From a virus, in IMG/VR virus record IMGVR_UViG_3300032304_000650, positions 2,751 to 66,750 of that record: a DNA stretch of 64,000 nucleotides, one strand, 5' to 3'. The notes below the pieces were generated by a model. It was given only the letters and a program-made list of their open reading frames with translations, was not told the DNA's origin and ran no database searches. This document shows positions 19,608 to 55,474 of this stretch, in pieces; the first letter of the stretch is position 1; every line of letters starts with the position of its first letter. A program made the position numbers and the translations under genes.

Positions 19608-22600
19608 CTATCTTGCTTTTAAAATATCTATTTCCGCTTTAAGTTCTTGAATTGCTTTTACCGCTATTGCTAAAATACCATCGTAATCCAATGCATAACC
19701 ATCTGTATAATTACCATGAACTAAGTTAGGTATTTCATCTTCTAAAATATCTTGAGCTATAAAACCAGTATGTGTAAATGTTCCATACTCTTCTTTACCA
19801 GGAGATTTTTTTATAAATGATGCTGGCTTAAGTTTTAGTATAGTATCTAATTGAGAATTTACTATATAATTAATATCTTTTTTATTTCTTCTATCGGATA
19901 CGTTTGAGCCAGCAAATGAATAGCTACCATTTCTATCCATAGAAAATAAAGTAGTACCCCAACCGCCACCATAAGGCCCTTGGTCTCTATTAATTCTAAA
20001 ATTAGTAGTATCATTATATCCAAACCCTATAGCCCATGTATTTGAATTGTATCCTTGAGAGAATAATATAGAAGAACTATCAGTTCCGCCTGATGCCCCT
20101 ACTCTGAACTCCGCACATATACCCCAAGAGTGATTGCCGTGCGTATTTAAAAACTGTGCAGTTGGATTATTTCCAGTAGCACTTCCTGTATTTGTAACTC
20201 TTAAAACATCAGGGACTCCACTTGTAATATCTAGTTTAAAACCAGGATTAGTAGTGCCTATTCCAACAAGACCAGACCCTGTAATTGTCATTCTAGTAGT
20301 AAGTGAAGCATATGCTCCAAGACCTGTTTTAAATTTAATATCACCAAAATATGGAGCTCCTTCTGTTGTTGAAGATATAGCAGCTCTCATAGTATTAATA
20401 TCTCCATCAACAAACATTACAGCTTCTTCATTACCAACAGCTGCTCCATTGTTTCTTAATATAATATGACCACCTAAGCCTCCACTAACAGACCTAAAAA
20501 TATCAAGAGGGCCTTGAGCAGTTGTTCCAGCTCCTATTAGCACATTACCACCGCTTGTAATACTCATTCGTTCAGTATCATTTGTTCCAAGTACTAAAGA
20601 AGATGCACCAGCATTTATTATATAAGCGTTATTTTGAGCAAATGTTGCACTTACAGAGTTTCCGCCTACACCAATATAGAGTTGTGCAGTTGATGATGTA
20701 TTTCTCCATCCAGAATTTGAATAAGCAGATGCACCATCATTTTGTATTGACAATTTAGTGTTTGGACTAGTCGTCCCAATCCCAACTGAACCACCGCTTG
20801 TGATAATTAAAAAATCAGATGAATAATTATTAAAAGCAAGTCCGCCATCGGTTGTATTATAAATCTGCCAATCAGGAAATTGATATCCAAAAGAAGTTGT
20901 TCTACCCGAAAGTTTATAATGTGTGCCTGCTGTTACACTACTTGAGAATGTAGCAGCACCAGTAGATTTAGATAATTTAAAATTATCATAACCGCTTTCA
21001 TTATATATTACATAATCATTTGATGATAAATTTTCTCTCATTCCAACAAACCATTGTTGAACTGTAGCAGTTTGAAATCCAATTCCATTATAATTTGTTA
21101 CTGCATCTCTATTTAAAGCTAATCCTCTTATGTTGTTATTTATAGTTATTACCCCACTAAACGTAGCACTTGTACCACTTAAAGCACCGCCAAATACTGT
21201 ACCCATTCCAGTGGCATCAATTGAAACTTTGTCTGATAAATTAATTCCTAAAATATTAAACGTAGTTGCACCACTAGACTTTTTCGCATATATATATTTG
21301 TTATTTTCTAAATTAATATCTTGAGAAAGACTAATACTTGTACCATTCAAAGCACCAGTAAGCGTACCACCAGCTAAAGGTAAATAGCTACTAAGTGCAG
21401 AGCTTGTAATATACCCACTTGGGTTAGTAGCATTGTAAGGAGTAAATCCTAATGCTGTCGTAACCTGAGAGCTATTAATACTTGTTAAGTAAGTGCTATT
21501 GTCATAAGTAACAGTTGTTCCTGATACCTTTACAAAACCAGTACCATTTAATTGAGCCTGACCTGAGAATGCGCCTACTTGATAACTATATGCATGCACC
21601 TCCAATGTATCGTTTAAGTTACATGGGAAGTTTAATACAATAGTTGTTCCATTGCCTGCCGCATACTCTGTAGATAAAAGCTTAGAGCCATTATAAAACA
21701 CATCTACTAAACCTGAATTATAAGTTACATTAAATGTAGTCTGTCCTGCAGTTGCAGTAAACTCTGTAACAACTCTTAAAGCATTATTAGCTAAGAAAGC
21801 TGTTTGATATCTATATACCTCTATAACGTCATTTACAGACGCACCATTGGTCAATACTATCGTAGTGCCATTAGTTGCTGTAAAGTCTGTTGTATTGTCT
21901 AATTTAACCCCATTTCGGTATACATCTGTAAGCCCTGGCGTATACCCACCAGATATTGTGAATGTAGTCTGATTTGCAGTAGCTACATATCTTAAAATAC
22001 TTCTTGCAGAAGCGTCTGTTGTAATAGTCCAAGACCTATCTGCTGATAAGTCATATGAAGTTCCGTTAATTGTAATTGTTCTTGCATTGGTAACAGGAGT
22101 ATATCCTAATATTGTAGAAATTGTCTTTGGCTTATACAGGCTAGTTGCAGACTCATAAACAATAACTTGATTGTTTTGAACAGAGCCTTCTGCGTAGTTA
22201 TGAAGCTCATTCATCTCAAACCCATTCTGCACCTTCACAAAGATTTCTCCATTGTTAGAATTAGCTCTAGTTACGATACCTATAAATACTAAGTGCGCAG
22301 GAGCATAAGGCTTGTTTGTTAATCCAAAGATTAAAGCACCATCCACACCTAGCCATACTGGGTCTCCAGCTGTAGCTCCATTTGTATTCAATCCAGAAAG
22401 TAAACCCTCTGTAATTACATTTCCTTTACCATTAGTAGATAAACTAACCTCAAGCAATCCCATTGTCTTAGAAGAAGTTCCTTCTGAAACATTAGATGCT
22501 TTTGATACAATCATATTAGTGCCATCCGCAGATGATACATAAACAGCTTGTCCTTTGCTTATTGCCTGACCAGCTTTTACTTCATGTTTTAAAGTAGAAG

Positions 22601-22781
22601 TAAAACCTGCAGGTAAAGAACCTATTCCTAAGTCAGCATATAATTCAGCAGCAGTTCTATATGACACTACATTACTTGAGTCTAATACGAGAAACTTGTC
22701 TGTATTAGAACCTGCATCAGCCACCGTATTAAGGGCAGCTGAACCAGTTACATTTATTCCACTTAAGAATCTTTTAGACAT
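19608..22781 (-). CDS. long tail fibre with S74 chaperone and two putative docking domains
   Basis: Two ATAxQTTF...NG.KL...NGTTIVL domains, GNVGIGT repeats, SDRRNKKDI...GFIAQD. Confidence 0.85.
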   Translation of the reverse strand: MSKRFLSGINVTGSAALNTVADAGSNTDKFLVLDSSNVVSYRTAAELYADLGIGSLPAGFTSTLKHEVKAGQAISKGQAVYVSSADGTNMIVSKASNVSEGTSSKTMGLLEVSLSTNGKGNVITEGLLSGLNTNGATAGDPVWLGVDGALIFGLTNKPYAPAHLVFIGIVTRANSNNGEIFVKVQNGFEMNELHNYAEGSVQNNQVIVYESATSLYKPKTISTILGYTPVTNARTITINGTSYDLSADRSWTITTDASARSILRYVATANQTTFTISGGYTPGLTDVYRNGVKLDNTTDFTATNGTTIVLTNGASVNDVIEVYRYQTAFLANNALRVVTEFTATAGQTTFNVTYNSGLVDVFYNGSKLLSTEYAAGNGTTIVLNFPCNLNDTLEVHAYSYQVGAFSGQAQLNGTGFVKVSGTTVTYDNSTYLTSINSSQVTTALGFTPYNATNPSGYITSSALSSYLPLAGGTLTGALNGTSISLSQDINLENNKYIYAKKSSGATTFNILGINLSDKVSIDATGMGTVFGGALSGTSATFSGVITINNNIRGLALNRDAVTNYNGIGFQTATVQQWFVGMRENLSSNDYVIYNESGYDNFKLSKSTGAATFSSSVTAGTHYKLSGRTTSFGYQFPDWQIYNTTDGGLAFNNYSSDFLIITSGGSVGIGTTSPNTKLSIQNDGASAYSNSGWRNTSSTAQLYIGVGGNSVSATFAQNNAYIINAGASSLVLGTNDTERMSITSGGNVLIGAGTTAQGPLDIFRSVSGGLGGHIILRNNGAAVGNEEAVMFVDGDINTMRAAISSTTEGAPYFGDIKFKTGLGAYASLTTRMTITGSGLVGIGTTNPGFKLDITSGVPDVLRVTNTGSATGNNPTAQFLNTHGNHSWGICAEFRVGASGGTDSSSILFSQGYNSNTWAIGFGYNDTTNFRINRDQGPYGGGWGTTLFSMDRNGSYSFAGSNVSDRRNKKDINYIVNSQLDTILKLKPASFIKKSPGKEEYGTFTHTGFIAQDILEDEIPNLVHGNYTDGYALDYDGILAIAVKAIQELKAEIDILKAR

Positions 22782-24970: not shown

Positions 24971-27900
24971 CTATTTATTCTCTGTCTTCAATATCTTCAT
25001 ATATTGTATGCCAGTAGGGTTGTCAGCATTCATGATTCTAAGCTTGTATAATATATCAAAGTACTCTTGAGCTTCCTTCTTATCCATCTCTTTAGCCTTA
25101 TCGTATATATACTTCGCTCTAGTCTTAGGGTCATTTATTCTGTAAGCCTCATAAACCTGTTGGTCATAATTTTGTTTGATATACTTATCAGTAGTTGCCT
25201 TAGCTACATTTGGAGAAAGGTCGTATTTAAGCCCACCAGCCTTATTTGCAGATTCTTTTACAAGTCTTTCATATAAGCTAGGGTAATTCTTATTTACTAT
25301 ATTAAGTGTGCCTTGTATCTCTTTATTCTTAGAGGCTATGTCAGCATTGTATTTGTCATACATTTTTGTATCCTTGTTCATCAATGCAGCATGCGCCTTT
25401 GATTTCAAGAAGTCAATCTCCTCGTAATCCATCATGATTCTAGTCTGGTAGTAGTTAGGAGTTCCAGCAAATAGTCTCTTCTGTAATGATAAACTATTTA
25501 AAATAGCACCTTTCCAGTCTTTTTGAAGACCTTCCTTAAGAGTTACTGGAGCTCCAGTTGCTAATTCTACAGCTGTTTCAAACGCTATCTTAGGAACATA
25601 GATAAGAGGGTTTCTTTCTGGCTGACCATATATCTTCTGACCTGCAGCCTGTAATCTAGCTGGAGAAGTGCCAGTCAAAGAACCTATCTTTTTATAAACT
25701 CCACCAACAGCCTCATCCATAGCGCCTTCATAATCATCTGGAATACCTGCCTCGTCTGTAACTATTTGCTTCTTAGTAAATATATCTAGGTTATTGTAAG
25801 CTAATAAAGCAGCAGCGCCTGGAGGTAGTTTAGCTGGGATTTCTGTTACATCTCCAAAAGGATTTGCGTTAGCTATAGCACTTACGTAGTCTGCCTTTGT
25901 ATATATATTTTTACTACGCTTAGATTCAAATCCCATCATTGCAGCAACCCAGAAGTTCTTAAAGAAAGGAGGCATTGGAACTTTAATAAATTGTCTTTCT
26001 GGAGCATCTCCTCCTACATATATATTTAAGTAGTTTAACTTCTGATATTCAGATAGTGAATCCCATGCAGCTTTCTTTTTCTTTTTTTCTTCATCGTCTT
26101 CCCATGGCATATTCATAATTCCTGCACTATAGGCTGTTAACAAGCCTCCTATAGCAAGCATTTCTCCCATCTGATACATCGCTCTTGCTGGATTTTTCTT
26201 AATCTGATTGATTACAGAAACTCCAGTTTGAACTGTAGAGTTTAGATATATAATAAGTCTAGATGCTGGCTTTACAAGGCTTCCACCTCTAGCAAAATCA
26301 GAACTTCTTCTAGCCTCATGTGCGGCCATTGCATATATTGCATCTAACTCAGCCTTACTTGGCTTTCTTTTATTTTCTTTTTCAAACTTTTCTTCAAATA
26401 CTTTTCTAGCTCTATCAAATATAATAAGTCTAGTAGCCTTCTCTGTTACGTCAGAAACTTTACCAAGACCTGTTTTATCAATCAACTTATCTATAAGCTC
26501 TATTGGCTTTGAGCTATATTGACTAGCTGTATTTATAAGCTTTTCGTATCCAGTACCATCTATTATATCTTTTGATAAAAGTGAAGTCTCTAATTCTCTT
26601 CCAGCATTCATTTCTGTAAATGCTCCCCACTTAGCTGCAAGTCTATACTTATCACCTCTTCCAATTACTTGCTTAATAGAACCTTTCCATCCAACAGTAT
26701 CAACTCCACCTAATGCAATCTGAGCATAAGCTACAGGTACGGAAGGAGAGAATACGTCTGTTGCAACAGCAGCTGTTAACGGGTCAAGCGCAATCATCTG
26801 GAATATACCAAATCCTGGGTTCTTACCAGTAAGTAACTTCTGTGTTAAACTAGCAAATGTTATGTTAGCTAATATGTTTACTTCATCAGACTGACTGTAT
26901 CTAGCATTCCATTGGTCTGCAATTTCATCTGTGGCAAGAACTGCTTTTCTTTGTCCATCTTGATAAAAAAATATGTAAGACATTCCTTCAGGAGCTGTTT
27001 TGTAAACTGGATTACCATCCTTATCTAAAACAACATCACCATCTTCATCTACTACTGGTATAGCTATTTCTACCAAACCATTGTTTGGATTCTGTTCTGC
27101 AAAATTAGCAAGCTGAGTAGCTGCTCTATTGTTTGAAACATTCTTATAGTGGCCCGTAGCAAATACTTGGAATATAGCTTCATAGTCTGTAAGTATATCA
27201 CCATCAGCGCCACCACTCAAAACAGACTTTCTAAGCTGATTTGGATTCTTAGACATTACTCTAGCGTAGTCTGGGTCTTGCTCTTTAAGTATTTTATCAA
27301 TGTATGAAATAGGCACGTAATCGTACTTAATATACATATCATAAGTTTCTTTTGATACTAATCCGTTATCAAGTTTTTCTTTCATGATATTTCTATAAGT
27401 ATCAAACATCTTATCTGCACGCTCGTTTAATTTATCAAATTCAGGATAAGCATTTTCAATAGTCTCTAACTGCTTACTTGCCATACCAGCGTTATATGGA
27501 ATTTTATTTCCATTTGCATCTACAGTAGAACCAACTTGGTAATTCTGTAAATACTCTGTAGTTTCTTTTGTCTGAGGATTATATTTTTTACCTAATACTT
27601 TTCTATCTTGTAAGTATTCTACAGCAGCGTCTATTTTAACTTGAAGCGCTTCTTTCTTAGCATTACTTCTAAGTTTTTTCATCTGAGCACGCATTGCTTG
27701 TAGCTCATTAAATTTATCTTGAACCATATTCTGAACAGCAACAACTCTGCGCATGTTCATGATTTGATTAAGTAAGTCAACCTCGCTGAACTTAATTTTA
27801 CCTTCACCAAATGATAAATCCTTTTTATCAGAAAGTCCTTTATATACAGCGTCTATTACATCTTCTGTAGCTAATGCAGCTTGTGCTCCAAATCCTCTAG

Positions 27901-30900
27901 ATGTAGTCAACATTGCATCAGCTAAAGCTCCAGTTGCGCCAGCATCTGTAAACAGCTTTCTAACTGAAGTTTGATTCTCAATGCCTAAAAGTTTTATATT
28001 CTTATATGCATTTTTTAATTTATTTATAATTCCTGTATTTGATACAGACTCTTTCGCTCTTGTAGTAGCATTCATGTTATATTCAAAAGAAGAGATTGCA
28101 TCAGCTTCTGTTCTAGCGTTTTGTTTAGCTGTTTGTTTAGCAGACTTTCTTGATTTACCAGTATTCCCTACTTGTAATTGCATTCCACTAGGATTCTTTG
28201 TAATAACTACACCAGCTTTACCAAATGAGTTATCTTTTTTTACAGTAACATTATCTCCAAGTAAATCAGAAACATATTCAACCAACTCGTTACCATCAAA
28301 ACCTTTCTGATATACATCTGTAATTCCACCAGCTTCTTTTCTTTTAATTATAGCAGACTTAGGCTCTGGCCCTTTTTCTGCATTCTTAGCTAGATTAATA
28401 TCCCCAGTCCATCCTCTAGAAGAAATTATTGCACTTCCTCCTTCATTTAATTTATTGTATATATCCTTAACGATAGCATCTCTAGTATCTTTTGGGACTA
28501 CATTTAATACATTAAGACTAACAACAGCGTCGTATGTTTTATTTATATCTGAGCTACTTGTAAATGCTGGTTGCTTTTTACCTTTCCATCTATCTATATT
28601 TGGTTCAAATGAATCTACATTAGGAATAACATCTGACATTGCATCAGACCCTAATCCTAATCCAGCTCCATAATCTAATACAGACTTAGCTCCTAAAGAC
28701 TTTGCTATATTAGCAGCTTTAACATAACTACCAGTTGTGGTAGCTACTTGAGTTGTGCCACTTGATTTATCTGCCTTAATTGCATTATCTACCTGAAGCG
28801 CCATTGAAGAACTTAGTTTAACAATAGGCTGAGCACCCATAGCTGACTTAGCTGCTTGTGGCTTAGCTCTTTGGCCTAATGGCGTTTGGTTTGCTTCTTT
28901 AGAAGCTGGAACAAAATCAGGAGCAACTTTCCTTACATCGTAAAACTCTTCAAATATTCCTATAGGTTGACCTGTAACGATGAATGGATAAGACGGATGA
29001 TTCTTAAATCTATCGTCTGTTCTAGTATCTATAATTGGGCTATTCTTGTCTATTTGTATAGCAGCTACAATATCACCATATTCTGCATTTTTAAGCATTG
29101 GCTCATTTGATATTTCAAGCGCTGTTTCTAGTCTTGGTATTCCAAAGTTCTTTTCAGTAAATGCGCTAAACACCTTCTTTGTAAATCCACCTCTTTGGTC
29201 ATAACTAAACTTACCAGCTCCTTCTATTGGCATTAATCCATCTAAATCAGATAAAGATTCAATGCTTGTCTTTTTCCCCTTATCAGCAAGTAGTTGTCTG
29301 AATGTTACTCCAGTTGATACGTTAGTATCCAACTTTGCATCAAGGTATTTAACTAAGTCTTTTTCTGGTACACCTTTATCTACTGCATTGTAAAACTCTC
29401 CCATCATATATCCATAGAAGTCATAGCTCCCTGTAATACCTTCTTCTTTTTGTGACATGATAAGACCAATGCCATCACTTTGTTTAGCTCTATTTAAAAA
29501 TTTCTGAGCAGCAGCTTTTGTTGTAAATGCCCATACTCCAGTACCATCTTGATAAGAGTATGCAACACCACCGTTAAACTCATGAACATATCCACTAGGT
29601 GATTTAACAATAGCTGATATAGCCTTGTCTGCAGCAAATATAAATGCGTTTGCACCATCAAGGTCATTCATTGTTATAAACTTCAAAGACTTCTCGTCAA
29701 AGTTTCTTTCCGCTATCTCTAAGTTTAATCCTTCTTTATTTACCTTTCTACCATTTGGCTGTATGCCACCTGCATTAATCCTTATTGGGTTAGATGTTAA
29801 TCCAGCCTCTGTAGCAGAACCACTTGTCTCGCTAACTATCACCACTTCACGTCCAGTCTGGAACGCTTCTTTAATCTTAGCAGCAACAGCCTTTAAGTCA
29901 TCTATAGATTGTATGTCTGAATTGAATCCAATAATTTCTAAGAATCCTTTAATTACATCAAGGATATTATTCATCACAATAGGCTGGTCTGCTGGTAATT
30001 CAATTTGTCCATCAGCAACTCTTGCTATAAATTCTACAATAGCTTCTGACTTAACTGTATCATCACCATACTTTGCATACCCATCACCAAAAGCAAGTAC
30101 ATCCATAACACCATCAACAGATTCACTTAGGTTTCTAAGCTGGTCATACATTTGACCAACAGCCTCTGAGTTCTGCTGTGCAATCATGTTAATGATAGGA
30201 TGTGCTCCTTCATGAAATATCGTAGAAGTCTTATTCTTTTTGCCAAGCACTTCTCCATTTAGATATATAGTATTATTGACTCTATCAAATGCCCCATTAG
30301 AACCCCTATAATCTTTTTCTTTATCCTTACTTACGCTATATCCATTATCAATTTCTTGCTGTATTAGTATGTCCCCGTATTGCTGAGCAGATGGGACTAC
30401 TACTACCTTAACACCTGGATTGATAGACTTAAGAGCAGAAACTACATTTGACGCATAGTTTATAATTCTATCTCCAAATGTTTTAGGATTTTCTACTGTA
30501 GACGTGTCTGCATTTTGTGCATCTACTACTACTATTTGTCCTTGCGTTTTGCTGCCGAAATTGCGATAGCGATTATCTGGTTCATTGGTCGCTTGTTCTT
30601 GCTGTCCTTCAATTCCCTCACGTTGGATGATATTGCCTTCTGGAGTGATTTCTTGCTGCTGCTGGCTGCTTTCTTGAGTGGCATATTGTTTATTTTTAAT
30701 GTTTAATCCTGTTTTATCATCAACCTCTTCGGATAATGGGTCTTCCGATACTTGTGCTCTAGCTATACGACCATTAACATCTTGTAACTCTGCATTTAAC
30801 GCAGCAAGTGCTGGTAGGTCTGTTTCTGGAGTATTAGCTATTTTTTGTTGTATACCTTCAGCTTTTATAGTTAATCCAGCAACAGTAGGAACAGCATCTT

Positions 30901-32422
30901 GATTAGATACCATCACCTTGCCTTTTGCTTCTCTAAATTTATCTATGTCTTCAACAGACTTCTTAGCAGTACCTTCTGGAACTAAACCCGATTGCTCCAT
31001 GGCAACCATGTTATTATATATAGTCTGATTATCTAGATTTGATATAGCGTTATAAGCATATGACTTTACATACTTAGGAACAGCTATAGCACCACCGACA
31101 GCAGCAAATCCTAGCTGAGTTAAAAACTCTGCCTTAAACTGCTCTTCAGCTGATTCATCTGAACCACCTCTAATCTTTTCCATGGAATATGCAACAGCAC
31201 CATCTAAACTGCCAGATAAGGCTAATTCCTTTCCATTTGCGGCAGCATCTTTTAAGAATGCCTTAGTTGCTTGTCCAAAAGATTTAAGCTCTCTAGCGGG
31301 CTTTATTTGAGAGAATGTCTTTAATACCTTACTACCTAAGTATTGACTAACAACACCCTCTGCAGCTCCAGTCATTAAAGACACCTTGCTATTCCAGAAG
31401 TTATTAGCAACCTCATATGCATCATCATCGGATAAACCGTTTTGCTTTGCTTTTTGGAATGCTTGATTCTTGCTATCAAATTGCTGTCTTTTAGCTTGAA
31501 CCGCACCGACAACTGCTGGAGATAAAAACTGTCCAAGTCCTGGGATTGTACTAACAGCTATACCAGTAGTAATATCTGGAACTACTCCACCCATCATACC
31601 AGTAGTTTCAGCTCCAAAACCTCTTCTTTCTGTTTGTATTGTACCAAGGTCTTTATCTCTTGGCATTTCTGTATATCTTACCTTATTAGGTTTCCCAGCT
31701 TCTCCTATAGTAGTTAATTGAACTCGTTTATTGCCTTTCATAAAAGCTATCTGCTCTTCTCTATCCATCACATCAAATCCTTCTACTTCCTTATTTGTAT
31801 TAATTGTAGCATTATAACCATCTAAAAAACTAGCTATCTTGCCATCTATTACATTCTTAAGTACTGGAAATCCTTTATCATCTTTGCCTATTCTTAATTC
31901 TCCAGCTTTAAATCTAGATAAAAAATCTTCTCTCTTCTGTGTAATAAATATATCTCTCATTGGCATATCAGCTGATAACTGATTAGCATATATTTTAGCC
32001 TGATTATCTACAGCTATAAGAGCATTATCATATGTATTTATGTTTGACTTAGACTTTTGTAATCCTAGGTCTGCAGGCTTTTCTGTAACTTTTGCATCTT
32101 TCTTAACCACTGGAACTGGCTGTCTTTCAGAAACCTGAGCAGTTGTTGGCATTGCATTTTTAGCAACATCTTCCATTGTAAAAGAAGTCTTAGGAGCTGG
32201 TTGCTTAGCTGCTGCTTTTTGAGCAGGAAGTTGTCCTGCCATGGCTGCTCTAAATACTGGCTTTAAAGAAGTTGCACCCTTTCTAAGCGTATTCATGTAG
32301 TTAGCTTTTAACAGCTCTCCAACACTAGAATACCCTGTTCTTCTATCTTTTGGATTAGTAGGGCCTTGAGAATTATCTTCGCTATTGAAATTAACGGTTT
32401 CGTCTGTAGTATTTTCAGCCAT
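24971..32422 (-). CDS. giant internal virion/ejection protein, polyvalent (zincin peptidase, class I MTase, LPD38-like)
   Basis: 2483 aa; HEGAH at about 30200-30214; VLDYGAGLG...YDAVVSLNVLNVV at about 28200-28760; C-terminal ARRSSDFARGG...FIKVP...SPARL region. Confidence 0.7.
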   Translation of the reverse strand: MAENTTDETVNFNSEDNSQGPTNPKDRRTGYSSVGELLKANYMNTLRKGATSLKPVFRAAMAGQLPAQKAAAKQPAPKTSFTMEDVAKNAMPTTAQVSERQPVPVVKKDAKVTEKPADLGLQKSKSNINTYDNALIAVDNQAKIYANQLSADMPMRDIFITQKREDFLSRFKAGELRIGKDDKGFPVLKNVIDGKIASFLDGYNATINTNKEVEGFDVMDREEQIAFMKGNKRVQLTTIGEAGKPNKVRYTEMPRDKDLGTIQTERRGFGAETTGMMGGVVPDITTGIAVSTIPGLGQFLSPAVVGAVQAKRQQFDSKNQAFQKAKQNGLSDDDAYEVANNFWNSKVSLMTGAAEGVVSQYLGSKVLKTFSQIKPARELKSFGQATKAFLKDAAANGKELALSGSLDGAVAYSMEKIRGGSDESAEEQFKAEFLTQLGFAAVGGAIAVPKYVKSYAYNAISNLDNQTIYNNMVAMEQSGLVPEGTAKKSVEDIDKFREAKGKVMVSNQDAVPTVAGLTIKAEGIQQKIANTPETDLPALAALNAELQDVNGRIARAQVSEDPLSEEVDDKTGLNIKNKQYATQESSQQQQEITPEGNIIQREGIEGQQEQATNEPDNRYRNFGSKTQGQIVVVDAQNADTSTVENPKTFGDRIINYASNVVSALKSINPGVKVVVVPSAQQYGDILIQQEIDNGYSVSKDKEKDYRGSNGAFDRVNNTIYLNGEVLGKKNKTSTIFHEGAHPIINMIAQQNSEAVGQMYDQLRNLSESVDGVMDVLAFGDGYAKYGDDTVKSEAIVEFIARVADGQIELPADQPIVMNNILDVIKGFLEIIGFNSDIQSIDDLKAVAAKIKEAFQTGREVVIVSETSGSATEAGLTSNPIRINAGGIQPNGRKVNKEGLNLEIAERNFDEKSLKFITMNDLDGANAFIFAADKAISAIVKSPSGYVHEFNGGVAYSYQDGTGVWAFTTKAAAQKFLNRAKQSDGIGLIMSQKEEGITGSYDFYGYMMGEFYNAVDKGVPEKDLVKYLDAKLDTNVSTGVTFRQLLADKGKKTSIESLSDLDGLMPIEGAGKFSYDQRGGFTKKVFSAFTEKNFGIPRLETALEISNEPMLKNAEYGDIVAAIQIDKNSPIIDTRTDDRFKNHPSYPFIVTGQPIGIFEEFYDVRKVAPDFVPASKEANQTPLGQRAKPQAAKSAMGAQPIVKLSSSMALQVDNAIKADKSSGTTQVATTTGSYVKAANIAKSLGAKSVLDYGAGLGLGSDAMSDVIPNVDSFEPNIDRWKGKKQPAFTSSSDINKTYDAVVSLNVLNVVPKDTRDAIVKDIYNKLNEGGSAIISSRGWTGDINLAKNAEKGPEPKSAIIKRKEAGGITDVYQKGFDGNELVEYVSDLLGDNVTVKKDNSFGKAGVVITKNPSGMQLQVGNTGKSRKSAKQTAKQNARTEADAISSFEYNMNATTRAKESVSNTGIINKLKNAYKNIKLLGIENQTSVRKLFTDAGATGALADAMLTTSRGFGAQAALATEDVIDAVYKGLSDKKDLSFGEGKIKFSEVDLLNQIMNMRRVVAVQNMVQDKFNELQAMRAQMKKLRSNAKKEALQVKIDAAVEYLQDRKVLGKKYNPQTKETTEYLQNYQVGSTVDANGNKIPYNAGMASKQLETIENAYPEFDKLNERADKMFDTYRNIMKEKLDNGLVSKETYDMYIKYDYVPISYIDKILKEQDPDYARVMSKNPNQLRKSVLSGGADGDILTDYEAIFQVFATGHYKNVSNNRAATQLANFAEQNPNNGLVEIAIPVVDEDGDVVLDKDGNPVYKTAPEGMSYIFFYQDGQRKAVLATDEIADQWNARYSQSDEVNILANITFASLTQKLLTGKNPGFGIFQMIALDPLTAAVATDVFSPSVPVAYAQIALGGVDTVGWKGSIKQVIGRGDKYRLAAKWGAFTEMNAGRELETSLLSKDIIDGTGYEKLINTASQYSSKPIELIDKLIDKTGLGKVSDVTEKATRLIIFDRARKVFEEKFEKENKRKPSKAELDAIYAMAAHEARRSSDFARGGSLVKPASRLIIYLNSTVQTGVSVINQIKKNPARAMYQMGEMLAIGGLLTAYSAGIMNMPWEDDEEKKKKKAAWDSLSEYQKLNYLNIYVGGDAPERQFIKVPMPPFFKNFWVAAMMGFESKRSKNIYTKADYVSAIANANPFGDVTEIPAKLPPGAAALLAYNNLDIFTKKQIVTDEAGIPDDYEGAMDEAVGGVYKKIGSLTGTSPARLQAAGQKIYGQPERNPLIYVPKIAFETAVELATGAPVTLKEGLQKDWKGAILNSLSLQKRLFAGTPNYYQTRIMMDYEEIDFLKSKAHAALMNKDTKMYDKYNADIASKNKEIQGTLNIVNKNYPSLYERLVKESANKAGGLKYDLSPNVAKATTDKYIKQNYDQQVYEAYRINDPKTRAKYIYDKAKEMDKKEAQEYFDILYKLRIMNADNPTGIQYMKILKTENK

Positions 32423-34344: not shown

Positions 34345-37300
34345 TTATCTATTGTTTAAAGGTTGTAGTATTCCTAATTCTGCGTAATACAAATCTACTA
34401 AGTTTTGCGGATTTGTAGCTTTTAAGTTTAATTCAAGCCATGAACCCTTTAGCACCTTACCGCCATATAAACCACCAGTGCTATTTATATCTCTTTTAAA
34501 AGACGCATGATATTTATCATCTTTTATCTTAAAATCGGCACTTAACAGCTTTGAATTGTTATTCATATTAGTAACAATATCGCTAGTTAAAGGGGCTACC
34601 CATGTTGTGTTACCTAGTGTAGTAAGTGTATTATAATGCTTTTTTATATTCGGGTTTTGATTAAACACTAACTTTATAGAAGGAGTTTGTTGCACTCCAT
34701 AAAAATTAGCATAAGCTGTAGTGTTATTATGCGCCCATAACTCACCATTTTTCCATGATACTATAAGGTTCCCAGCAACAGCAATCCACTCTGGATTATA
34801 ATCATAGAAAGCACTATATGCATTTCTAGGTTCAGAGAATCCAAATGTATAGTCTGTTATAGTACTTCCACTTCCCTGCATAACAGTTATAAACTCCTCT
34901 TCAAATGCATCATAAACACCTAATACTTTAGCATATCCGCCATTGCCAAATTTATCTGCATTATTTGTTTTTTGATACTTTGTAATCTTATCTGTAAGGA
35001 AAAAGTGAGCTTTGTATGTTTCACTTATAGAAGTCATACCATCTGCAGCTAATCTAACTTGACACCCAAGTATTGGGTCTGTAAAATAGTCAGCGCTAGC
35101 AGAAGATGCTAATGAGCAATACTGCTCACCAATTCCATAATCACCTTGATAATACTGAATGCTATTTAAAATTTCTGAACTTTGAGATACCACGCTTCCT
35201 CCATCAGCAGTCTGTAGTACATTCTGCAATACAGGAACAACTCCACAAGCTCTATTTTGAAATACTTTTAGCTGTTGACCTCTTATTTTAAATCTTTGGA
35301 TATCACCCTTTTGCCTATCGTATTCGTCAAGATTAGCAGGGTTAAATCTATTTGTATTATTTATATTTGTTCCTTGCTCGTATTCGCCTGAATATCTTAT
35401 AAGGGTAGGATAATACGTTTCTTTTGCATATTCATCTATTACAAAAGGTCTGCCATTACCATCTACTTTAGATGGATATTTATCAGACACAGACATATCA
35501 ATTACATAAGCATTATTATTTCTTCTTCTGTTGTATACGTCTCCTCTAATAAAGTTATATTTAGCAGGTCTAGAACCTGTTCCTATGATTTGATTTTGCC
35601 CAGCTCCTTCATGTACAAGGTTGTTATTAGCATCTTTTATAATATAATAATCTTCCCCAAACTCGTAATATAATTGCTGTTCGTCGGTTGAATTAGGAAA
35701 GGTGCTATACAGCTCTAAATAGTACCCTGTAGTAGCTGTTTCCCATTGACTCATTAAACTAGCGTCATATGTAACTTTTATCCAATAACCTGTTCCAGTT
35801 CCATCATTATCTCCAGTAGGATTTTCTAACAAAACATCTAATATTGGTAAATCTAGTGCAAGGGTATTAAATCCATATATCTTAACTCTATCCCCTTTTT
35901 GGAATGAATATACAGGATATCCATTTTTATTTTTATTATAATTGCTAATATCCATATATCCATAAAGAGTATCCTTATGAACTTTATTTGTAGTAGCCCA
36001 AACAAAATTAGATGAAGTTAAATTATTAGTTCTTACAAAAGAAAATGTTTTAGCCCAAGAAGGAGGTGCATGATTTACATCAATTAATATTTTTGGATTA
36101 TAAAGCAATGAATTTCCTATTGCATTACTACCTACTACTTTTAATGGCAGTGTTGTAACCTTCATTGAATCACCAGTAACAACACCATTAGTAACTCCAA
36201 ATTCATCAAAATAAACTATACCAAATTTATATGTAGAGCTATGTTTGTAGCATGATATATTTACATCTGTAGGAGTCTCTGTTGATACTAAATCAACATA
36301 AGCTTCTCCTACTGTATTCCATGTAATTCTATTTCCTGTAGGAGTATATGATACTAAAAGGTCATTAGTACTACTACTTGTTCCTGATAATTTTGCTTCT
36401 GCGTCTATAACTCCTTTAAAATAGTCTCTTATATTTGTAGCAGTAGTAGTCCCATTAGGAACTGTGTAATCATATCCAAAAGTCTCTTCAGTAACCTCAA
36501 CTGGGAAAACATTATCATTAGTAACTGTAACTACTACATCTAATCTAACTTTATCTCCCATAGCAGGAACACCGCTAAATATAAATCTCCAGTTCCTACC
36601 AACATCCTGAGATGTAACACTTAATAAAGCAGTACTAGAAGAAGGTTCTTGCTCATCTGCTGTTACTGTAACAGATATTGGGTTATTAAAAGTATTTCCT
36701 TCTAATATTCCTCCATATGCTAATATATTACCATTAAGTAATTCTTGCGTATTAGCTTTCTTAGGTACATAATCAAATAATTGAATACTTTCTGTAACAC
36801 TTGAAAATGGATAAGCTCCATCATTAAAAAAATTATATACTCTAGTAACATTACTTGGCATTGCCAATCTTTGCTTATCTAATACGGTAACTATCATTCT
36901 ATCCGAAAATGCGGCAGCAACAGTCTCTCTTGTAGATATTTCTATTCTATAACAATCTATAGGGCCTGTATTATATGATACGCTTATTACGTTATTTTTT
37001 GTAGGGTCTGCGTCTAAGTTTAAATCAGTAATATTAAATGGTGCAAAAACTTTACTCCACGGACTCCATGTAGACTTAGTATTATCCTTGTATACCCATC
37101 TATAACTAAATTGGAATAACTTACTTCTAAGATTATTTTGAGTATCTGGACTATCTCCATAAGAACATACTGGTGCTTTTGTAGGCATCTTCCTAGCAAC
37201 AGTTAAATATTCCATCTTCCAATTTGTTCCATAAGTTTTACCTGATACTGTAGCTTCTTTTATATTAAGCTTCATAGGTTTATTATTCCTATCAGTCCAA

Positions 37301-37545
37301 TGAATCACATCACCTTCGTCTTCTGTTCTATAAAGTATATTAATAGATGCAATAGGGAACTTAGGGTCAAAATTAAATATATCCTCTTGACTATCTATAA
37401 ATGATATTAAAAGTGGAGATATAGTATTTGCCTTAACATCATAAGAATATATACCATGATAACCAGCTGAGTTATAGTTAAAGTAAAATACCCTCTGCTT
37501 TAACTCGTCGTAATGAGAACCTATACATTGATTTGTAGACGGCAT
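34345..37545 (-). CDS. tail muzzle/stabilisation protein lacking its usual N-terminal ~60 aa
   Basis: CIG..YDE...FYF, WTDRNNKPMKLN, FSYRWVYKD..KS.WSP, YKFGIVYFDEFG, N...TT.F..E..NA..AFYDY.PE-type motifs of crAss/phi38:1-like stabilisation proteins. Confidence 0.8.
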   Translation of the reverse strand: MPSTNQCIGSHYDELKQRVFYFNYNSAGYHGIYSYDVKANTISPLLISFIDSQEDIFNFDPKFPIASINILYRTEDEGDVIHWTDRNNKPMKLNIKEATVSGKTYGTNWKMEYLTVARKMPTKAPVCSYGDSPDTQNNLRSKLFQFSYRWVYKDNTKSTWSPWSKVFAPFNITDLNLDADPTKNNVISVSYNTGPIDCYRIEISTRETVAAAFSDRMIVTVLDKQRLAMPSNVTRVYNFFNDGAYPFSSVTESIQLFDYVPKKANTQELLNGNILAYGGILEGNTFNNPISVTVTADEQEPSSSTALLSVTSQDVGRNWRFIFSGVPAMGDKVRLDVVVTVTNDNVFPVEVTEETFGYDYTVPNGTTTATNIRDYFKGVIDAEAKLSGTSSSTNDLLVSYTPTGNRITWNTVGEAYVDLVSTETPTDVNISCYKHSSTYKFGIVYFDEFGVTNGVVTGDSMKVTTLPLKVVGSNAIGNSLLYNPKILIDVNHAPPSWAKTFSFVRTNNLTSSNFVWATTNKVHKDTLYGYMDISNYNKNKNGYPVYSFQKGDRVKIYGFNTLALDLPILDVLLENPTGDNDGTGTGYWIKVTYDASLMSQWETATTGYYLELYSTFPNSTDEQQLYYEFGEDYYIIKDANNNLVHEGAGQNQIIGTGSRPAKYNFIRGDVYNRRRNNNAYVIDMSVSDKYPSKVDGNGRPFVIDEYAKETYYPTLIRYSGEYEQGTNINNTNRFNPANLDEYDRQKGDIQRFKIRGQQLKVFQNRACGVVPVLQNVLQTADGGSVVSQSSEILNSIQYYQGDYGIGEQYCSLASSASADYFTDPILGCQVRLAADGMTSISETYKAHFFLTDKITKYQKTNNADKFGNGGYAKVLGVYDAFEEEFITVMQGSGSTITDYTFGFSEPRNAYSAFYDYNPEWIAVAGNLIVSWKNGELWAHNNTTAYANFYGVQQTPSIKLVFNQNPNIKKHYNTLTTLGNTTWVAPLTSDIVTNMNNNSKLLSADFKIKDDKYHASFKRDINSTGGLYGGKVLKGSWLELNLKATNPQNLVDLYYAELGILQPLNNR

Positions 37546-37548
37546 TTA

Positions 37549-37785
37549 TTATGTTTTGAATCTTAGTGTAATAGAATTTGTACAATATGTAGTGCTTGAC
37601 TGAACTTTAATTTGGAAGGCTGTATCAGGCACATCAGTATATCTAATAGCAGTACCAACCGTGAATGAAACACCTGTTTTAGTCCACCCAGCCACAAGAG
37701 CACCTGCTGTGTCCAAAGCTGTTAATGTAAAGTTTCCTGTATCTAAGCCTTTTGTTGAAAGCGTTACGTCTACTGTTTGAGGCAT
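37549..37785 (-). CDS. small beta-sandwich protein
   Basis: 78 aa; VPD....IKVQS...CTN; own promoter element at 37806-37813. Confidence 0.65.
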   Translation of the reverse strand: MPQTVDVTLSTKGLDTGNFTLTALDTAGALVAGWTKTGVSFTVGTAIRYTDVPDTAFQIKVQSSTTYCTNSITLRFKT

Positions 37786-37818
37786 TGAAATTCAATTTTA
37801 TGGTTCAAAGATACGAAT

Positions 37819-40431
37819 TTAAGAGCTACAACTTCCTACATTGGTAACAGAACCACCACCTCCATTTACTGTATCTGCTACTGCACATACATTCATAGTC
37901 ATGCCAGGCCCTACCGAATCATAAACCGTTGAGCCACCGCACTGCTCGTAAGATATATAAATGTCATAATTGGCATCTGAATTATAAATATCATAAGATG
38001 TGCAAGTGACTGGGTTATAACCACAATATCCAGCAACAATGCCATCTTGAGCTCCTGTACGAGTTTGACCCGCTGTTGGAGAACATTGATTTATATCCAT
38101 CTGTCTATAGTATCTTACATTACCCACACACTCATAATAGTCTTCTATTGGAAGCATATTTATCCAGTTAGCATCTGTACTTGGATATGAATTTGCAGGA
38201 TTACTTCCAACTCCATAATATAAATAATTACCACCACCTAAGTCAACCCTAAACTGTGCAGTATTCATCCCGCTATAACAAGCATTTGTATTAGCCATTA
38301 CCGCTGCAGTATTAACAGTACCACCTGAACAATAATGATAAGTACCTGCAGGATTTGTATAGCTAGGAGTTGTCGTATTACAAGGAGCAGCTCCTAAAAC
38401 TCCATCTGAATTTCTAGTAGTATTATAAGTAGAAGAGCATGGATTTACATCTCTTTGAGGTTGATATGATGTACAATCTATACATACTCTAGCTCCTTCA
38501 TTTTGCCAGTTTGCAGTTGTTACACAGTTGCCATTTGAAGGAGCAGTATTACCTACATTTATAAAAGTTTGACCAGGAGGCTGATTTAATATATAATTAT
38601 TAAATGTAGCAGAACATGGTCTAGTATCTCTAAATACAGCCCAGTTAGCACACTGATAGCATGTGTTATAGTTTTGAGCTGTTAATATAGGAGTAGTTAC
38701 GCAGTTACCATTAGTAGGAGCTGTATTGCCTACGTTTACATCATTTACTCTATAATTATTATAAGTAGGACTACAAGGGTTAGTATCTCTATATACTAGA
38801 TAATTTGTACAAGATGAACATGTATTATATGCTTGACTTGTCCAAGATGCAGTTGTATTACAGTTTCCAGCAGGAGGAGTTGTTTGACCTAAGCTAACTG
38901 TATCATTTACAAAATATTCATTCCAAGTAGGTGAACATGCATTTTTATCTCTGAAAACTGGATATGTAACACAATTATAACAATAATTAAATTCTTGATT
39001 AACTAATATCCTATCGTCATCTGGATAGTCGTTTACTGGATTAGTGGCATATGTAATAGTGCCATTTGGCCCTCTACTATATTGATTACCAGTAAAACAT
39101 GCATTACTATTTTGATGTATAGCATATTCGTTAATTTGACCTCCAATACAAACATAATAAGTGCCAATACTTGTACCACTATAATCAGCTGTTGTAATAC
39201 AATTGCCAGATGCAGGCTGTATTGTATCTATTACTCCATTTACTTTATACTTATTATAGCTTGTTGAGTTAGGATTAATATCCTTATATACGTCATAAGT
39301 AACACAATCTATACAGGTATTATAATTTTGGTCTACCCATACAGGTGTAGTGTCTCCACATTGAAAGCAAGTTGTATTAGTTGTACAAGGAACAACAGGG
39401 TCACATCTTGTTATAGTTAATCCTGTAACAGCTGGAGGGGTAGTACCACCAGCAACGCAAATATATTCAGGAGAATTAGCTTCAACAACTCTTGAAGAAG
39501 GATTGCCATTACATGCAAAGAATGTAACATCTAATCTATTTGCAGTTGTATTTGTAACAGTAAAGCAAGAGCAATCTCCAGCTAAAACGCAATCTGAAAC
39601 TATAGAAATAGCTACTTTATTTGCAGTATTAGCTTTATCTCTTAAACCTATATAGTATGTTCCATCTACTACGTTAGTGTATTCAGTATTAGGAAGAGTT
39701 ACATCTACAAATGTACCAGCTAATGCAGCAGCTGCAGTAGTATAAATTGTATTAGTTATTTGAAAAGTTCCTCCACCTCCAGTAAAAGTATTAGCTCTTA
39801 TGGTTGATTGACCAGTAAATTCATCACAAACATGATTTAATACACAGTTTACAGGCTCTGGAAGACACGTAACAATAGCAGAAGTGCTACCCTTTAATCC
39901 TCCAGTATCCATTATGGCTATATAGTATGTTGCATTACCTAAATTCTGAAAAGTATAAGACGAAGTAGTCAATGCAAATCTAGTTCCTGATGCATTTAGT
40001 CTAGTCAACGCATCTGCTTCTGATACCGTACTTATAGATATAAAACTAAAAGACTTCCATCCTCCAGCAAAATTATTTACAACTATTTTACCACTTCCTA
40101 TATATGCAGTACAACTAACTGTAGTTGTCATAGTAATAGGGTCTGGTATCCAAACAGCAGTTCCAGCTAACTCACACTTAGGCACATAAACAGCAGTCCC
40201 TTCTAATGAGCAATTTGGAGTAAATAAGGCGCTTCCTGACAACTTACAGTCATTGATTGCTAAAGATGCATTATTAACCTTTACATTGCCTCTAATGGCC
40301 GTAAAATGCATTTCAGGGGCATTCCCCTTGAATACACCGTTTCTGGCTTCCTTATGGTTATTTAATGGTAAGACATCATTAGAATCGTCAAGATTCATGA
40401 CACCATCTAATGTTTTTATTTCTTTGCCCAT
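37819..40431 (-). CDS. Cys-rich repeat virion protein with muzzle-type N-terminal peptide
   Basis: 870 aa; N-terminal GVMNLDD...HKEARN...AIRGN; about 50-aa C..C...RD.NPCS.TYN repeats. Confidence 0.75.
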   Translation of the reverse strand: MGKEIKTLDGVMNLDDSNDVLPLNNHKEARNGVFKGNAPEMHFTAIRGNVKVNNASLAINDCKLSGSALFTPNCSLEGTAVYVPKCELAGTAVWIPDPITMTTTVSCTAYIGSGKIVVNNFAGGWKSFSFISISTVSEADALTRLNASGTRFALTTSSYTFQNLGNATYYIAIMDTGGLKGSTSAIVTCLPEPVNCVLNHVCDEFTGQSTIRANTFTGGGGTFQITNTIYTTAAAALAGTFVDVTLPNTEYTNVVDGTYYIGLRDKANTANKVAISIVSDCVLAGDCSCFTVTNTTANRLDVTFFACNGNPSSRVVEANSPEYICVAGGTTPPAVTGLTITRCDPVVPCTTNTTCFQCGDTTPVWVDQNYNTCIDCVTYDVYKDINPNSTSYNKYKVNGVIDTIQPASGNCITTADYSGTSIGTYYVCIGGQINEYAIHQNSNACFTGNQYSRGPNGTITYATNPVNDYPDDDRILVNQEFNYCYNCVTYPVFRDKNACSPTWNEYFVNDTVSLGQTTPPAGNCNTTASWTSQAYNTCSSCTNYLVYRDTNPCSPTYNNYRVNDVNVGNTAPTNGNCVTTPILTAQNYNTCYQCANWAVFRDTRPCSATFNNYILNQPPGQTFINVGNTAPSNGNCVTTANWQNEGARVCIDCTSYQPQRDVNPCSSTYNTTRNSDGVLGAAPCNTTTPSYTNPAGTYHYCSGGTVNTAAVMANTNACYSGMNTAQFRVDLGGGNYLYYGVGSNPANSYPSTDANWINMLPIEDYYECVGNVRYYRQMDINQCSPTAGQTRTGAQDGIVAGYCGYNPVTCTSYDIYNSDANYDIYISYEQCGGSTVYDSVGPGMTMNVCAVADTVNGGGGSVTNVGSCSS

Positions 40432-40432
40432 T

Positions 40433-40624
40433 TTAAGGTCTATCGTTTGTTTTTAAATTACTATTAGTAATCTTTGTATTACCTCTTATTGCCTGAAATT
40501 TAATAAGACCTCTATTACCTCTAAATACGCCATTCCTAGCTTCTTTATGATGAGAAGAAGGGAAGGTGTCTCTTGGGTCATCAAGATTCATGACACCACT
40601 AAATGTCTTTCTTTCAAATCTCAT
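40433..40624 (-). CDS. stand-alone muzzle N-terminal peptide
   Basis: 63 aa; paralogous to the first ~60 aa of 37819-40431 (KT..GVMNLDD..D..P...HKEARNGVF.GN.....F.AIRGN.K..N..L..ND). Confidence 0.75.
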   Translation of the reverse strand: MRFERKTFSGVMNLDDPRDTFPSSHHKEARNGVFRGNRGLIKFQAIRGNTKITNSNLKTNDRP

Positions 40625-40625
40625 A

Positions 40626-41396
40626 TTATGACTTAGCTACTAATTTAGTACCCATTCTGATAACCTCATTTGCATCCCATAATGTTATAGGATTTTCTCT
40701 AAGGTTAGCTAATCTCTTTTGGTTGTAATATTCTTTTCTTCTAAGCTGTTTGTCTCCTAAGCTAGCTTTTCTGCCTAATGGCAAATGCTCCATATCTTTC
40801 CATGCTATAAACGCTAAAACAGCTTCCCTAATTTGAATAGGTATTTTATAGTCAACATCATCTGCTGGAGATGACATATATTCTAATACAACATATTGAT
40901 AAGCATATTCATTATCTAAGTAAATTAATCCTTGTTCTTCGTCAACATCAAATTCTCCTGGAGCATTTAATACAGAGCCAACTCCAAATATATTTATATA
41001 ACTAGCTCCATCAAAATAATTTACGAAAGCCAAATCTTGTAATCTATATGTATTACCATTGCTACTATCTGTATTGCTAGTAAGTCTATCTGATTGGTTT
41101 ATTTTGTAAGAACTAAGATTTCTGTTTCTTCTTAAAGTTGCAACTTCTCCTTTTTGGTTAAATATTCCAATTTTAGAAAAACCTACATAATCAGATGGTA
41201 GAGTTACTGTTTTATTTGCATTTACTGCTAACTTAACAGTTTTAGTAGTGCCATATACATCCATTCCCATTTCCTCTACCCCTCTAACACCAATAGTCCA
41301 TAGTCTCCTATAGTCTGCATTAGATAGCCTAGCTTGGTCTATATACTGATATATTACCTCTGATAATCCAACCCATTTTGCAGTATCCTTTGCCAT
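40626..41396 (-). CDS. tail ring/tubular protein
   Basis: LPSDYV..SKI, VVLEYMS and IP....EA..AFI.W motifs; position after the capsid genes. Confidence 0.7.
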   Translation of the reverse strand: MAKDTAKWVGLSEVIYQYIDQARLSNADYRRLWTIGVRGVEEMGMDVYGTTKTVKLAVNANKTVTLPSDYVGFSKIGIFNQKGEVATLRRNRNLSSYKINQSDRLTSNTDSSNGNTYRLQDLAFVNYFDGASYINIFGVGSVLNAPGEFDVDEEQGLIYLDNEYAYQYVVLEYMSSPADDVDYKIPIQIREAVLAFIAWKDMEHLPLGRKASLGDKQLRRKEYYNQKRLANLRENPITLWDANEVIRMGTKLVAKS

Positions 41397-42735: not shown

Positions 42736-42764
42736 AAAAAAAGCCCCACCGAGAACGGCAGGGC
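42736..42764 (-). terminator. intrinsic terminator
   Basis: Minus strand GCCCTGCC-loop-GGTGGGGC-T7. Confidence 0.75.
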
Positions 42765-55187: not shown

Positions 55188-55474
55188 ATATTTGCTTTGC
55201 GGTTGTTAAGTACCCCAAATATACGTCATCTTGAAACTAAAAAATCAATTTGACGTATTTTTTTTACAAAAAATTGAAAAACACGTATTGATTCTCAGTT
55301 AGTTACAAGGTTTCCTTCTTATATATATTATACAGATGTATTCCATACTCTGTATCCTGTTTTACAAACAGGTTTATACGTAGATATGGCACTCTATAAA
55401 GTAAAGCTGTTACTTTACCGTATCGGCTGTTTAGTCAAGCGTTAACTTGACGTGCGGCTACCCGTCAGAAAGTA

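Follow-up and report, generated by a model that had tools for sequence, protein, structure and literature searches.

A split muzzle gene in crass-like phages, with a detached N-terminal segment predicted to complete the fold in trans and proposed to anchor a cysteine-rich appendage

Introduction

Muzzle or nozzle proteins are conserved gatekeepers of podophage tails and are normally made as single chains. Podophage fibers usually dock in the zone where ring and muzzle join; T7 gp17 and P22 gp9, for instance, are attached at the adaptor-nozzle junction and combine a conserved N-terminal anchor with an exchangeable distal part that binds the receptor. The adsorption apparatus of the crass-like phages of Bacteroidota is poorly understood. 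Here, we describe a locus in a 64,000-nt stretch of viral DNA (the window; positions 2,751 to 66,750 of IMG/VR record IMGVR_UViG_3300032304_000650, which comprises 66,750 bp in all with direct terminal repeats) in which a crassvirus-type muzzle gene is split: the ~60 N-terminal residues of the protein are encoded as a separate 63-amino-acid (aa) peptide, and a paralog of this peptide forms the start of a large cysteine-rich protein.

Two described systems are closest to this locus. According to passages of PMC10172136, gp44 of ΦcrAss001 is a hexameric tail-tip gatekeeper composed of a ring-joining domain, a seven-bladed propeller, two Ig domains, and a crass domain. A nozzle made of two proteins has been reported for the Pseudomonas podophage A1002 (PLoS Biol 2026, PMC13730344); in the excerpted text of that paper, the nozzle consists of the nozzle-rope gp39 and the nozzle-base gp42, and the fiber-bearing nozzle-rope supplies the platform and propeller strands that are missing from the nozzle-base. 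Full-text searching for a split muzzle returned only this paper and general papers on the Crassvirales, and none of five passages retrieved from the Crassvirales review PMC10136315 on the muzzle, splitting, or tail stabilization describes a split muzzle gene.

The N-terminal segment of the muzzle is a separate gene

The genes of interest lie on the minus strand in the order 256-aa virion structural protein, 63-aa peptide, 870-aa cysteine-rich protein, 78-aa protein (p78), and 1066-aa muzzle body (Table 1). The 1066-aa open reading frame (ORF) matches the Pfam families crAss_MUZ (PF25731; 49.5 bits) and crAss_MUZ_C (PF25729; 35 bits), for both of which the cut-off is 27 bits; the crAss_MUZ match spans only profile positions 977 to 1223, and the match to PHROG 14478 begins only at profile position 59. 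A phmmer search of PDB sequences with the body gave no match at an E value of ≤1.

Comparison with full-length homologs shows what precedes this point in other phages. The proteins gp097 of Cellulophaga phage phi38:1 and gp22 of Flavobacterium phage elemoF (26 to 27% identity to the body, E values of 6e-24 to 2e-20) start 59 to 62 codons upstream of the position that aligns with body residue 1, and their N termini share the pattern of the 63-aa peptide. A closer homolog, found in loci L006 and L040 and 52% identical to the body, is uninterrupted across the same position (...NISNSLPGGTNMCIGTYYD...). All of these proteins run from the N-terminal segment directly into the CIG motif, as the first-pass annotation of this DNA had stated for the family. 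The single-chain feature of the family is absent from the window: body residue 1 aligns with residue ~58 to 61 of intact homologs, and the 63-aa peptide corresponds to their residues 1 to 60. The gene is truly cut at this point, as had been suspected, with each piece having its own start and stop codons. Sequence comparison confirmed the 1066-aa ORF as a crassvirus-type muzzle protein minus an N-terminal segment of ~60 residues.

The split is conserved and under selection

Using the conserved 256-aa neighbor, 26 distinct IMG/VR contigs were fetched and classified together with the window, giving 27 sources. Fourteen have an intact muzzle gene (1152 to 1344 aa, with the N-terminal segment first) and 10 are body-only; among the rest, the distant locus L053 has an N-extended muzzle, and two are cut by the contig end just after the N-peptide. 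At all 10 split loci (the window and nine IMG/VR contigs), at least one N-peptide ORF lies directly upstream, and the break point is common to them. The wider family gives the same picture. Of 120 listed homologs of an intact muzzle, 85 are likewise intact and 2 are fragments; the other 33 consist of the body only, and each of these starts at the same residue with its own ATG (M[APQ][SL]xNQCIG).

The pieces are arranged in different ways at different loci. The window shares with L029, L031, and L032 a layout in which a free 63-aa peptide is followed by a tagged cargo (1068, 509, and 846 aa, respectively, in the latter three), p78, and the body. In L030, two free peptides precede a tagged 839-aa ORF, a 74-aa ORF, and the body; the two free-peptide genes, of 62 aa each, stand in tandem (10773 to 11158), and the peptide cassette has therefore been duplicated more than once. 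A single tagged 210-aa ORF, followed by an 82-aa ORF and the body, is found in L033 to L036, whereas in L037 (10773 to 11000) an AT-rich spacer of 26 nt separates a free 62-aa peptide from the body, and both cargo and p78 are absent. Scans of whole records indicated that the tagged copy heading the 210-aa ORF is the sole copy of the segment in three genomes of the third layout that are bounded by terminal repeats (G001 to G003) and that the L037 record holds the free copy only. In L032 alone, two extra genes (308 and 213 aa; 13530 to 15052) stand between the tagged cargo and p78; insertions can therefore be accommodated in this gap of the split muzzle locus.

The free-peptide gene is under purifying selection. 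The ratio of nonsynonymous to synonymous substitution rates (dN/dS) is 0.06 to 0.15 in five ortholog pairs (dS of 1.0 to 1.8), and the copies of the window and L029 differ by three synonymous changes only. For the tag, dN/dS is 0.10 to 0.32 where it is computable, dS being saturated in three of six pairs.

The region from 37400 to 40700 is present in 20 DNA runs from seven studies, one of which may be the source of the record, and the habitat is freshwater wherever it is labeled; the listed runs include no RNA run. Contigs of runs X2, X3, and X12, which come from three other studies, are collinear with the window over this region, with 57 to 124 substitutions and no joints. The split is thus real, and the assembly artifact that the first-pass annotation had named as a possible refutation can be set aside. 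In the peptide gene of one of these contigs, a 1-nt deletion and a 1-nt insertion compensate each other within a span of 3 nt.

In a tree of the 256-aa neighbor, the 14 intact loci form one clade (100/99), and 11 split or truncated loci fall on the opposite side. The well-supported branches force only one state change, and the tree, which has no firm root, allows a single origin of the split without establishing it. The intact gene is probably the ancestral state, a polarity taken from more distant intact homologs and not from this tree. Elsewhere, the 342-aa protein P0210 consists of a distant N-peptide (E value of 4e-4) followed by nonmuzzle sequence; a search of IMG/VR for its locus found none. 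P0210 may represent an independent fission in another lineage.

The detached segment is predicted to dock on the muzzle body

The fold was tested on P0003, an intact 1160-aa relative from L038 that is ~50% identical to the body, and not on the window protein itself. An AlphaFold2 (AF2) model of P0003 from an 83-row alignment reached a predicted local distance difference test (pLDDT) score of 85.5 and a predicted template modeling (pTM) score of 0.73. The model matched the ΦcrAss001 muzzle 7qol_P (Foldseek E value of 3.2e-38; VIA Z score of 32.4, with a root mean square deviation of 4.5 over 756 residues), and the next-best structures were the podophage nozzles of Pa223, P22 (gp10), SU10, VP1, Sf6 (gp8), and T7 (gp12), with Z scores from 25 to 17.5. 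Confidence is high for the placement of residues 1 to 60 (block means of 76 to 94), which form strands at 2 to 8, 28 to 30, 32 to 35, and 41 to 45, and a coil at 52 to 61 coincides with the position of the split. Because nozzles align with the model from residues 1 to 4, whereas generic propellers align from ~29 to 45 up to ~1035, residues ~29 to 60 would be part of a propeller blade, and residues 1 to 28, together with the C-terminal ~120 residues, would correspond to the ring-joining or platform region of gp44.

For the complex, the body was supplied as two chains (residues 1 to 300 and 640 to 1066) and the 63-aa peptide as their partner, and an alignment accompanied every chain. The interaction prediction score from aligned errors (ipSAE) was 0.83, 0.81, and 0.84, and the best of three controls scored 0.00; in the calibration of the docking tool, which holds only roughly here, the mark was reached for 58 of the 80 solved complexes and for 2 of the 110 mismatched pairs. 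The docking runs gave 235 to 238 contacts at a partner pLDDT of 86 to 88, and at least 98% of the contacts agreed between runs. In the model, 56 of the 63 peptide residues contact the body, mostly within residues 844 to 1061 and to a small extent within residues 1 to 50. The predicted interface comprises residues 844 to 850, 882, 904 to 916, 928 to 965, 972, 978, 993, and 1035 to 1061 of the C-terminal part and residues 1 to 3, 5, and 23 to 50 of the N-terminal part, and swapping out the C-terminal body chain abolished the docking score. The C terminus of the peptide adjoins the N terminus of the body, as expected for a break in a loop.

The docking proposed in the first-pass annotation matches this prediction. 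Its further suggestion, that the peptide completes the muzzle propeller in trans, agrees with the predicted strands of the closing blade but is incomplete, in that the peptide is also predicted to form part of the ring-joining region with the C-terminal domain.

Free and tagged copies of the segment

As first proposed, the free peptide and the start of the 870-aa ORF are paralogs: the 63-aa ORF and residues 1 to 61 of the larger ORF are 57% identical over 61 aa (E value of 2.7e-20 in a tblastn search of the 64-kb window). In DNA, the same two copies are 67% identical over 153 nt; these values indicate diverged paralogs and not a recent repeat. No third copy of the segment was found in the window or in the whole 66,750-bp record. 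A tblastn search of 50,697 phage records with the 63-aa peptide gave no match at an E value of ≤0.01, and the peptide, the 870-aa protein, and p78 matched no PHROG or Pfam family, with only noise at an E value of ≤10.

We propose, at a probability of roughly 70%, that the split muzzle is complemented in trans and that the detached segment doubles as a fiber anchor. The muzzle gene underwent fission in the loop after residue ~60, and this fission is conserved and under selection. Made as a separate polypeptide, the detached segment is predicted to insert noncovalently into the body, where it would supply strands of the closing blade and a part of the ring-joining region that packs on the C-terminal domain, and the muzzle fold would thereby be rebuilt from two chains. 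The paralogous tag that heads the hypervariable cysteine-rich protein probably uses the same socket, as suggested by the conserved interface residues (the 10 residues of the free peptide with the lowest interface error are 12, 29 to 31, 43, 47 to 49, 51, and 52, and an alignment shows nine of them to be identical in the tag) and by the terminal-repeat-bounded genomes whose only copy is tagged. The split segment would then be the anchor of a fiber- or adhesin-like appendage rooted at the ring-muzzle junction. Where both genes are present, as in the window, plain and appendage-bearing peptides would divide the six sockets of the hexamer between them. Because G001 to G003 have only the tagged form and L037 has only the free form, either form seems able to fill the socket alone, which argues for the earlier idea that a subunit can take a plain or a tagged cap.

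Several points weigh against this proposal. The docking used three chains and self-made alignments, unlike the calibration of the tool, and its success may stem from the likeness to the ΦcrAss001 muzzle, a single chain whose structure is solved (7QOK) and which the model may simply reproduce. CheckV rates the terminal-repeat-bounded records just 58 to 60% complete. The 256-aa tree as drawn needs two state changes, and the branch to its single outgroup is very long. Finally, positions 35 and 38 to 44 systematically distinguish free from tagged copies, and the two could, on that account, be non-interchangeable.

This last point leads to the alternative that survives best, which we nevertheless consider unlikely: that free and tagged copies occupy fixed, distinct positions, either in alternating sockets (3+3, with three-fold symmetry) or with the tag on spare sites of the 12-fold ring. 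The class-specific residues (RGN..LIKFQ in free copies and KGNAPEMHFT in tags) are conserved across lineages, both classes are kept in four lineages, and, according to passages of PMC10172136, the 12-mer ring of ΦcrAss001 meets the six-fold muzzle through two ring conformations, all of which would suit fixed positions. On the other hand, the tagged-only complete genomes and the free-only contig indicate that one class can serve alone, and the near-identity of the best-defined interface residues speaks for a common socket.

If trans-complementation with a shared socket is correct, it can be taken one step further, tentatively and with more doubt than belief, to a natural case of split-protein complementation in which free peptide and tag would compete for the six sockets, gene dosage and expression would set the number of appendages per virion, and recombination behind the tag would bring in new distal modules. 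The existence of genomes with zero, one, or two free-peptide genes fits such competition by dosage.

The cysteine-rich appendage and p78

A profile of the N-terminal segment was compared with 1.84 billion cluster representatives and gave 93 matches at an E value of ≤1e-3, all but one of which (92 of 93) lie within the first ten residues of the protein. Sixty-eight of these proteins continue into a muzzle body (41 at full length and 27 that, at <1100 aa, were read as fragments), 16 consist of the tag and cysteine-rich sequence (158 to 1134 aa), 1 is a clean 63-aa free peptide, and 8 are short, ambiguous, or spurious. All 16 tagged nonmuzzle representatives have a cysteine about every 12 residues directly after the tag. 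In 15 of them, the cysteines are in register, spaced ~11 to 13 residues apart from residue 60 to 63 onward, and the remaining one, P0131, is a fragment truncated at its 5' end, in which the register is shifted. Tag and neck therefore form one conserved anchoring module ahead of a variable distal part and are not attached to unrelated cargos. The first-pass annotation had envisaged a general plug-in system for different cargos; the shared neck points instead to one diversifying, fiber-like family.

Across the classified loci, the tagged ORFs are 210, 509, 839, 846, 870, and 1068 aa long. Among 78 homologs of the distal part (residues 98 to 870), 29 have the N-terminal tag and 49 have other, unrelated N termini. 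In the proteins P0235 to P0262 (1157 to 1425 aa, from ~35-kb contigs), the cysteine-rich module is C-terminal and follows a different conserved N terminus; these proteins presumably belong to another phage group. The exchange of distal modules behind different anchors is an established feature of phage tail fibers, and such shuffling of a module behind different N termini would, by analogy, be typical of receptor-binding proteins. From the variability in length and the shuffling of the module, we infer that the cysteine-rich cargo is a fiber or receptor-binding protein. A Protein Atlas search with the cargo gave, at a best score of 0.78, a viral cluster with SprB repeats, which is a weak lead only.

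p78 accompanies the tagged protein. It is present at all nine loci with a complete tagged ORF, whereas neither L037 nor any of the 14 intact loci has it, and its 36 homologs are 78 to 79 aa long. The AF2 model is a six-stranded beta-sandwich (pLDDT of 92.8), for which a Foldseek search of the PDB found nothing at an E value of ≤0.001. An hhalign comparison aligned p78 with residues 18 to 70 of P0278, the N-terminal domain of untagged cysteine-rich proteins (probability of 62%, E value of 7e-5, 40% identity over 52 columns), and proteins of the P0278 type continue with a Thr-rich linker. p78 may thus share ancestry with this domain of some untagged cysteine-rich proteins, and we suspect that it is a putative accessory of the appendage. 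When alignment columns were searched for cysteines peculiar to split bodies that could pair with the neck in disulfides, only Cys198 stood out (62% of split and 0% of intact rows), as a tentative candidate.

Two other proteins of the window, of 810 aa (15030 to 17462, minus strand) and 1057 aa (19608 to 22781, minus strand), end in a Peptidase_S74 chaperone domain (E values of 7e-16 and 1.7e-9, respectively) and are therefore conventional tail fiber or spike proteins, besides the predicted muzzle-anchored cysteine-rich protein. That the phage already has two such proteins could favor an internal role for the 870-aa protein, as a tail-lumen or plug protein held by its tag at the ring-joining region and released at infection. 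We regard this role as improbable, since 46 cysteines, repeated beta-rich modules, a length range of 210 to 1068 aa, and shuffling behind different N termini typify surface receptor-binding proteins, to which the SprB-repeat lead, for what it is worth, can be added. A fiber-like appendage rooted by the tag at the ring-muzzle junction remains the preferred reading. Also encoded nearby is a 2483-aa protein (24971 to 32422, minus strand) with subthreshold matches to Methyltransf_23 (26.6 bits, cut-off of 27) and to the LPD38 'large polyvalent protein' family (22.6 bits, under the cut-off), which may be an ejected virion protein.

Gene boundaries and surroundings

The 256-aa gene and the 63-aa ORF meet at TAA-T-ATG, the 63-aa and 870-aa ORFs meet at TAA-A-ATG, and p78 and the body meet at TAATAA-ATG. 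The 870-aa ORF and p78 are 33 nt apart, with two further in-frame stops inside the gap. Read-through or recoding that would link the ORFs is ruled out by the TAA stops together with these additional in-frame stops. A self-splicing intron or mobile insertion was likewise rejected: no Rfam match was found at the gathering threshold in the window or at an E value of ≤1 in 37300 to 40800, and PHROG and Pfam scans detected no homing-endonuclease family among the intervening ORFs.

It is accordingly very improbable that the pieces are rejoined, by an intron, trans-splicing, ribosomal bypass, or a +1 shift at TAA-A-ATG, into a mature muzzle of one chain. Rejoining could draw on the single nucleotide between the stop of the 63-aa ORF and the next ATG in the window, L029, L031, and L032 and on the common frame of the 870-aa, 78-aa, and 1066-aa ORFs. 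However, the ORFs are separated by several in-frame stops, an ATG is retained at the same residue in each of the body-only genes, the intervening ORFs encode conserved proteins of their own, and L030 and L037 have a different spacing. The view of the 63-aa ORF as a remnant in decay, or of the whole arrangement as an assembly artifact, has next to nothing in its favor beyond the small size of the ORF and its lack of family and tblastn matches, given the low dN/dS, the orthologs in independent contigs, the collinear contigs of three other studies, and the fact that the free peptide is the only source of the segment in L037.

Table 1. Features of the split muzzle locus in the window
Feature	Position	Strand	Basis
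256-aa virion structural gene	40626-41396	-	PHROG 13977
Free N-peptide gene, 63 aa; detached N-terminal muzzle segment	40433-40624	-	Aligns with residues 1-60 of intact muzzles
Cys-rich ORF, 870 aa, 46 Cys	37819-40431	-	
N-tag, residues 1-61 of the 870-aa ORF; paralog of the free peptide	40249-40431	-	57% identity, E 2.7e-20
Neck, residues 62-97 of the 870-aa ORF; three 12-residue repeats with one Cys each	40141-40248	-	Sequence
Variable Cys-rich distal part of the 870-aa ORF; ~50-residue repeats with motif NYNTCxxC	37819-40140	-	
p78, 78 aa; small six-stranded beta-sandwich	37549-37785	-	AF2 model
Muzzle body, 1066 aa; starts MPSTNQCIG, without the N-terminal ~60 residues	34345-37545	-	Pfam, PHROG
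Main predicted peptide socket, body residues ~844-1061	34363-35016	-	Docking-model interface
Second predicted socket part, body residues 1-50, beside the peptide C terminus	37396-37545	-	Docking-model interface

Since a scan for terminator-like sites on the minus strand found none between 42743 and 33500, this block may be one transcription unit. A strong terminator-like hairpin at 42743 to 42764 (minus strand; a stem of 9 pairs, including 7 G-C pairs, ahead of a T-run) separates a 306-aa gene from the tail-gene block. A scan for sigma-70-type promoters was uninformative, with 53 sites against 47 ± 8.4 expected. In the neighborhood, a 207-aa protein resembles CrAss_Ring_2 weakly (E value of 6e-4; 20 bits, under the cut-off of 27).

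The composition of the window varies along its length. In the bin that holds the cargo gene (38001 to 40000), the GC skew is -0.04 and the AT skew is -0.01, compared with -0.12 to -0.21 and -0.03 to -0.17, respectively, in the flanking 2-kb bins; the deviation could stem from an unusual amino-acid composition or from a foreign origin of the gene. On a larger scale, GC skew and gene orientation flip near ~5500 to 6500 and ~55000 to 57000, with the structural genes in a long minus-strand block between the flips and plus-strand genes at both ends.

Significance and comparison with known systems

The locus documents a clade-wide, selected fission of a muzzle protein, the detached piece of which appears to be reused as the anchor of a hypervariable appendage, and it comes with a comparative series of intact, free-only, tagged-only, and combined states, and of two free copies with a tagged one. 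If the proposed trans-complementation is true, it would be another, independent way, after that of phage A1002, of building a nozzle from two chains, a new mode of attachment for receptor-binding proteins in crass-like phages of Bacteroidota, and a clear natural case of a functional microprotein of ~60 residues that annotation pipelines could easily miss.

The muzzle of ΦcrAss001 (gp44; PDB 7QOK and 7QOL) provides the structural reference. It belongs to the same Pfam families, the intact relative of the body has the same fold, and its gene occupies the same genomic place, after small ring-like structural genes. However, gp44 is a single chain, whereas the first ~60 residues are here a separate product that has been duplicated as a tag, and identity to gp44 in the structural alignment is only ~16%. 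The nearest cultured relatives are homologous muzzle-like virion structural proteins, phi38:1 gp097 and elemoF gp22, which share the gene order after the portal and small structural genes but are encoded by single ORFs of 1324 and 1493 aa, respectively, that include the N-terminal segment. T7 gp17 and P22 gp9 likewise combine a conserved anchor with a variable distal part, although their anchors are separate domains on the tail surface, while the anchor here would be a piece of the muzzle fold itself.

The split nozzle of A1002 is the most similar in principle. Entries for A1002 gp39 and gp42 were absent among the listed structure matches of the P0003 model, the sequences themselves not having been compared directly. 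As far as the excerpted text of the A1002 paper goes, that system rebuilds a nozzle fold from two polypeptides, as the docking predicts for the present locus, and its complementing chain carries the fiber dock, as would also hold here if the 870-aa cysteine-rich protein headed by the tag is a fiber. The two belong to different phage lineages, and the complementing strands lie at the C-terminal end of gp39, in contrast to the N-terminal 60 residues here. Moreover, the same text describes no free microprotein paralog in A1002, whereas the muzzle segment described here exists in both free and tagged forms, within a natural series of intact, split, and duplicated states.

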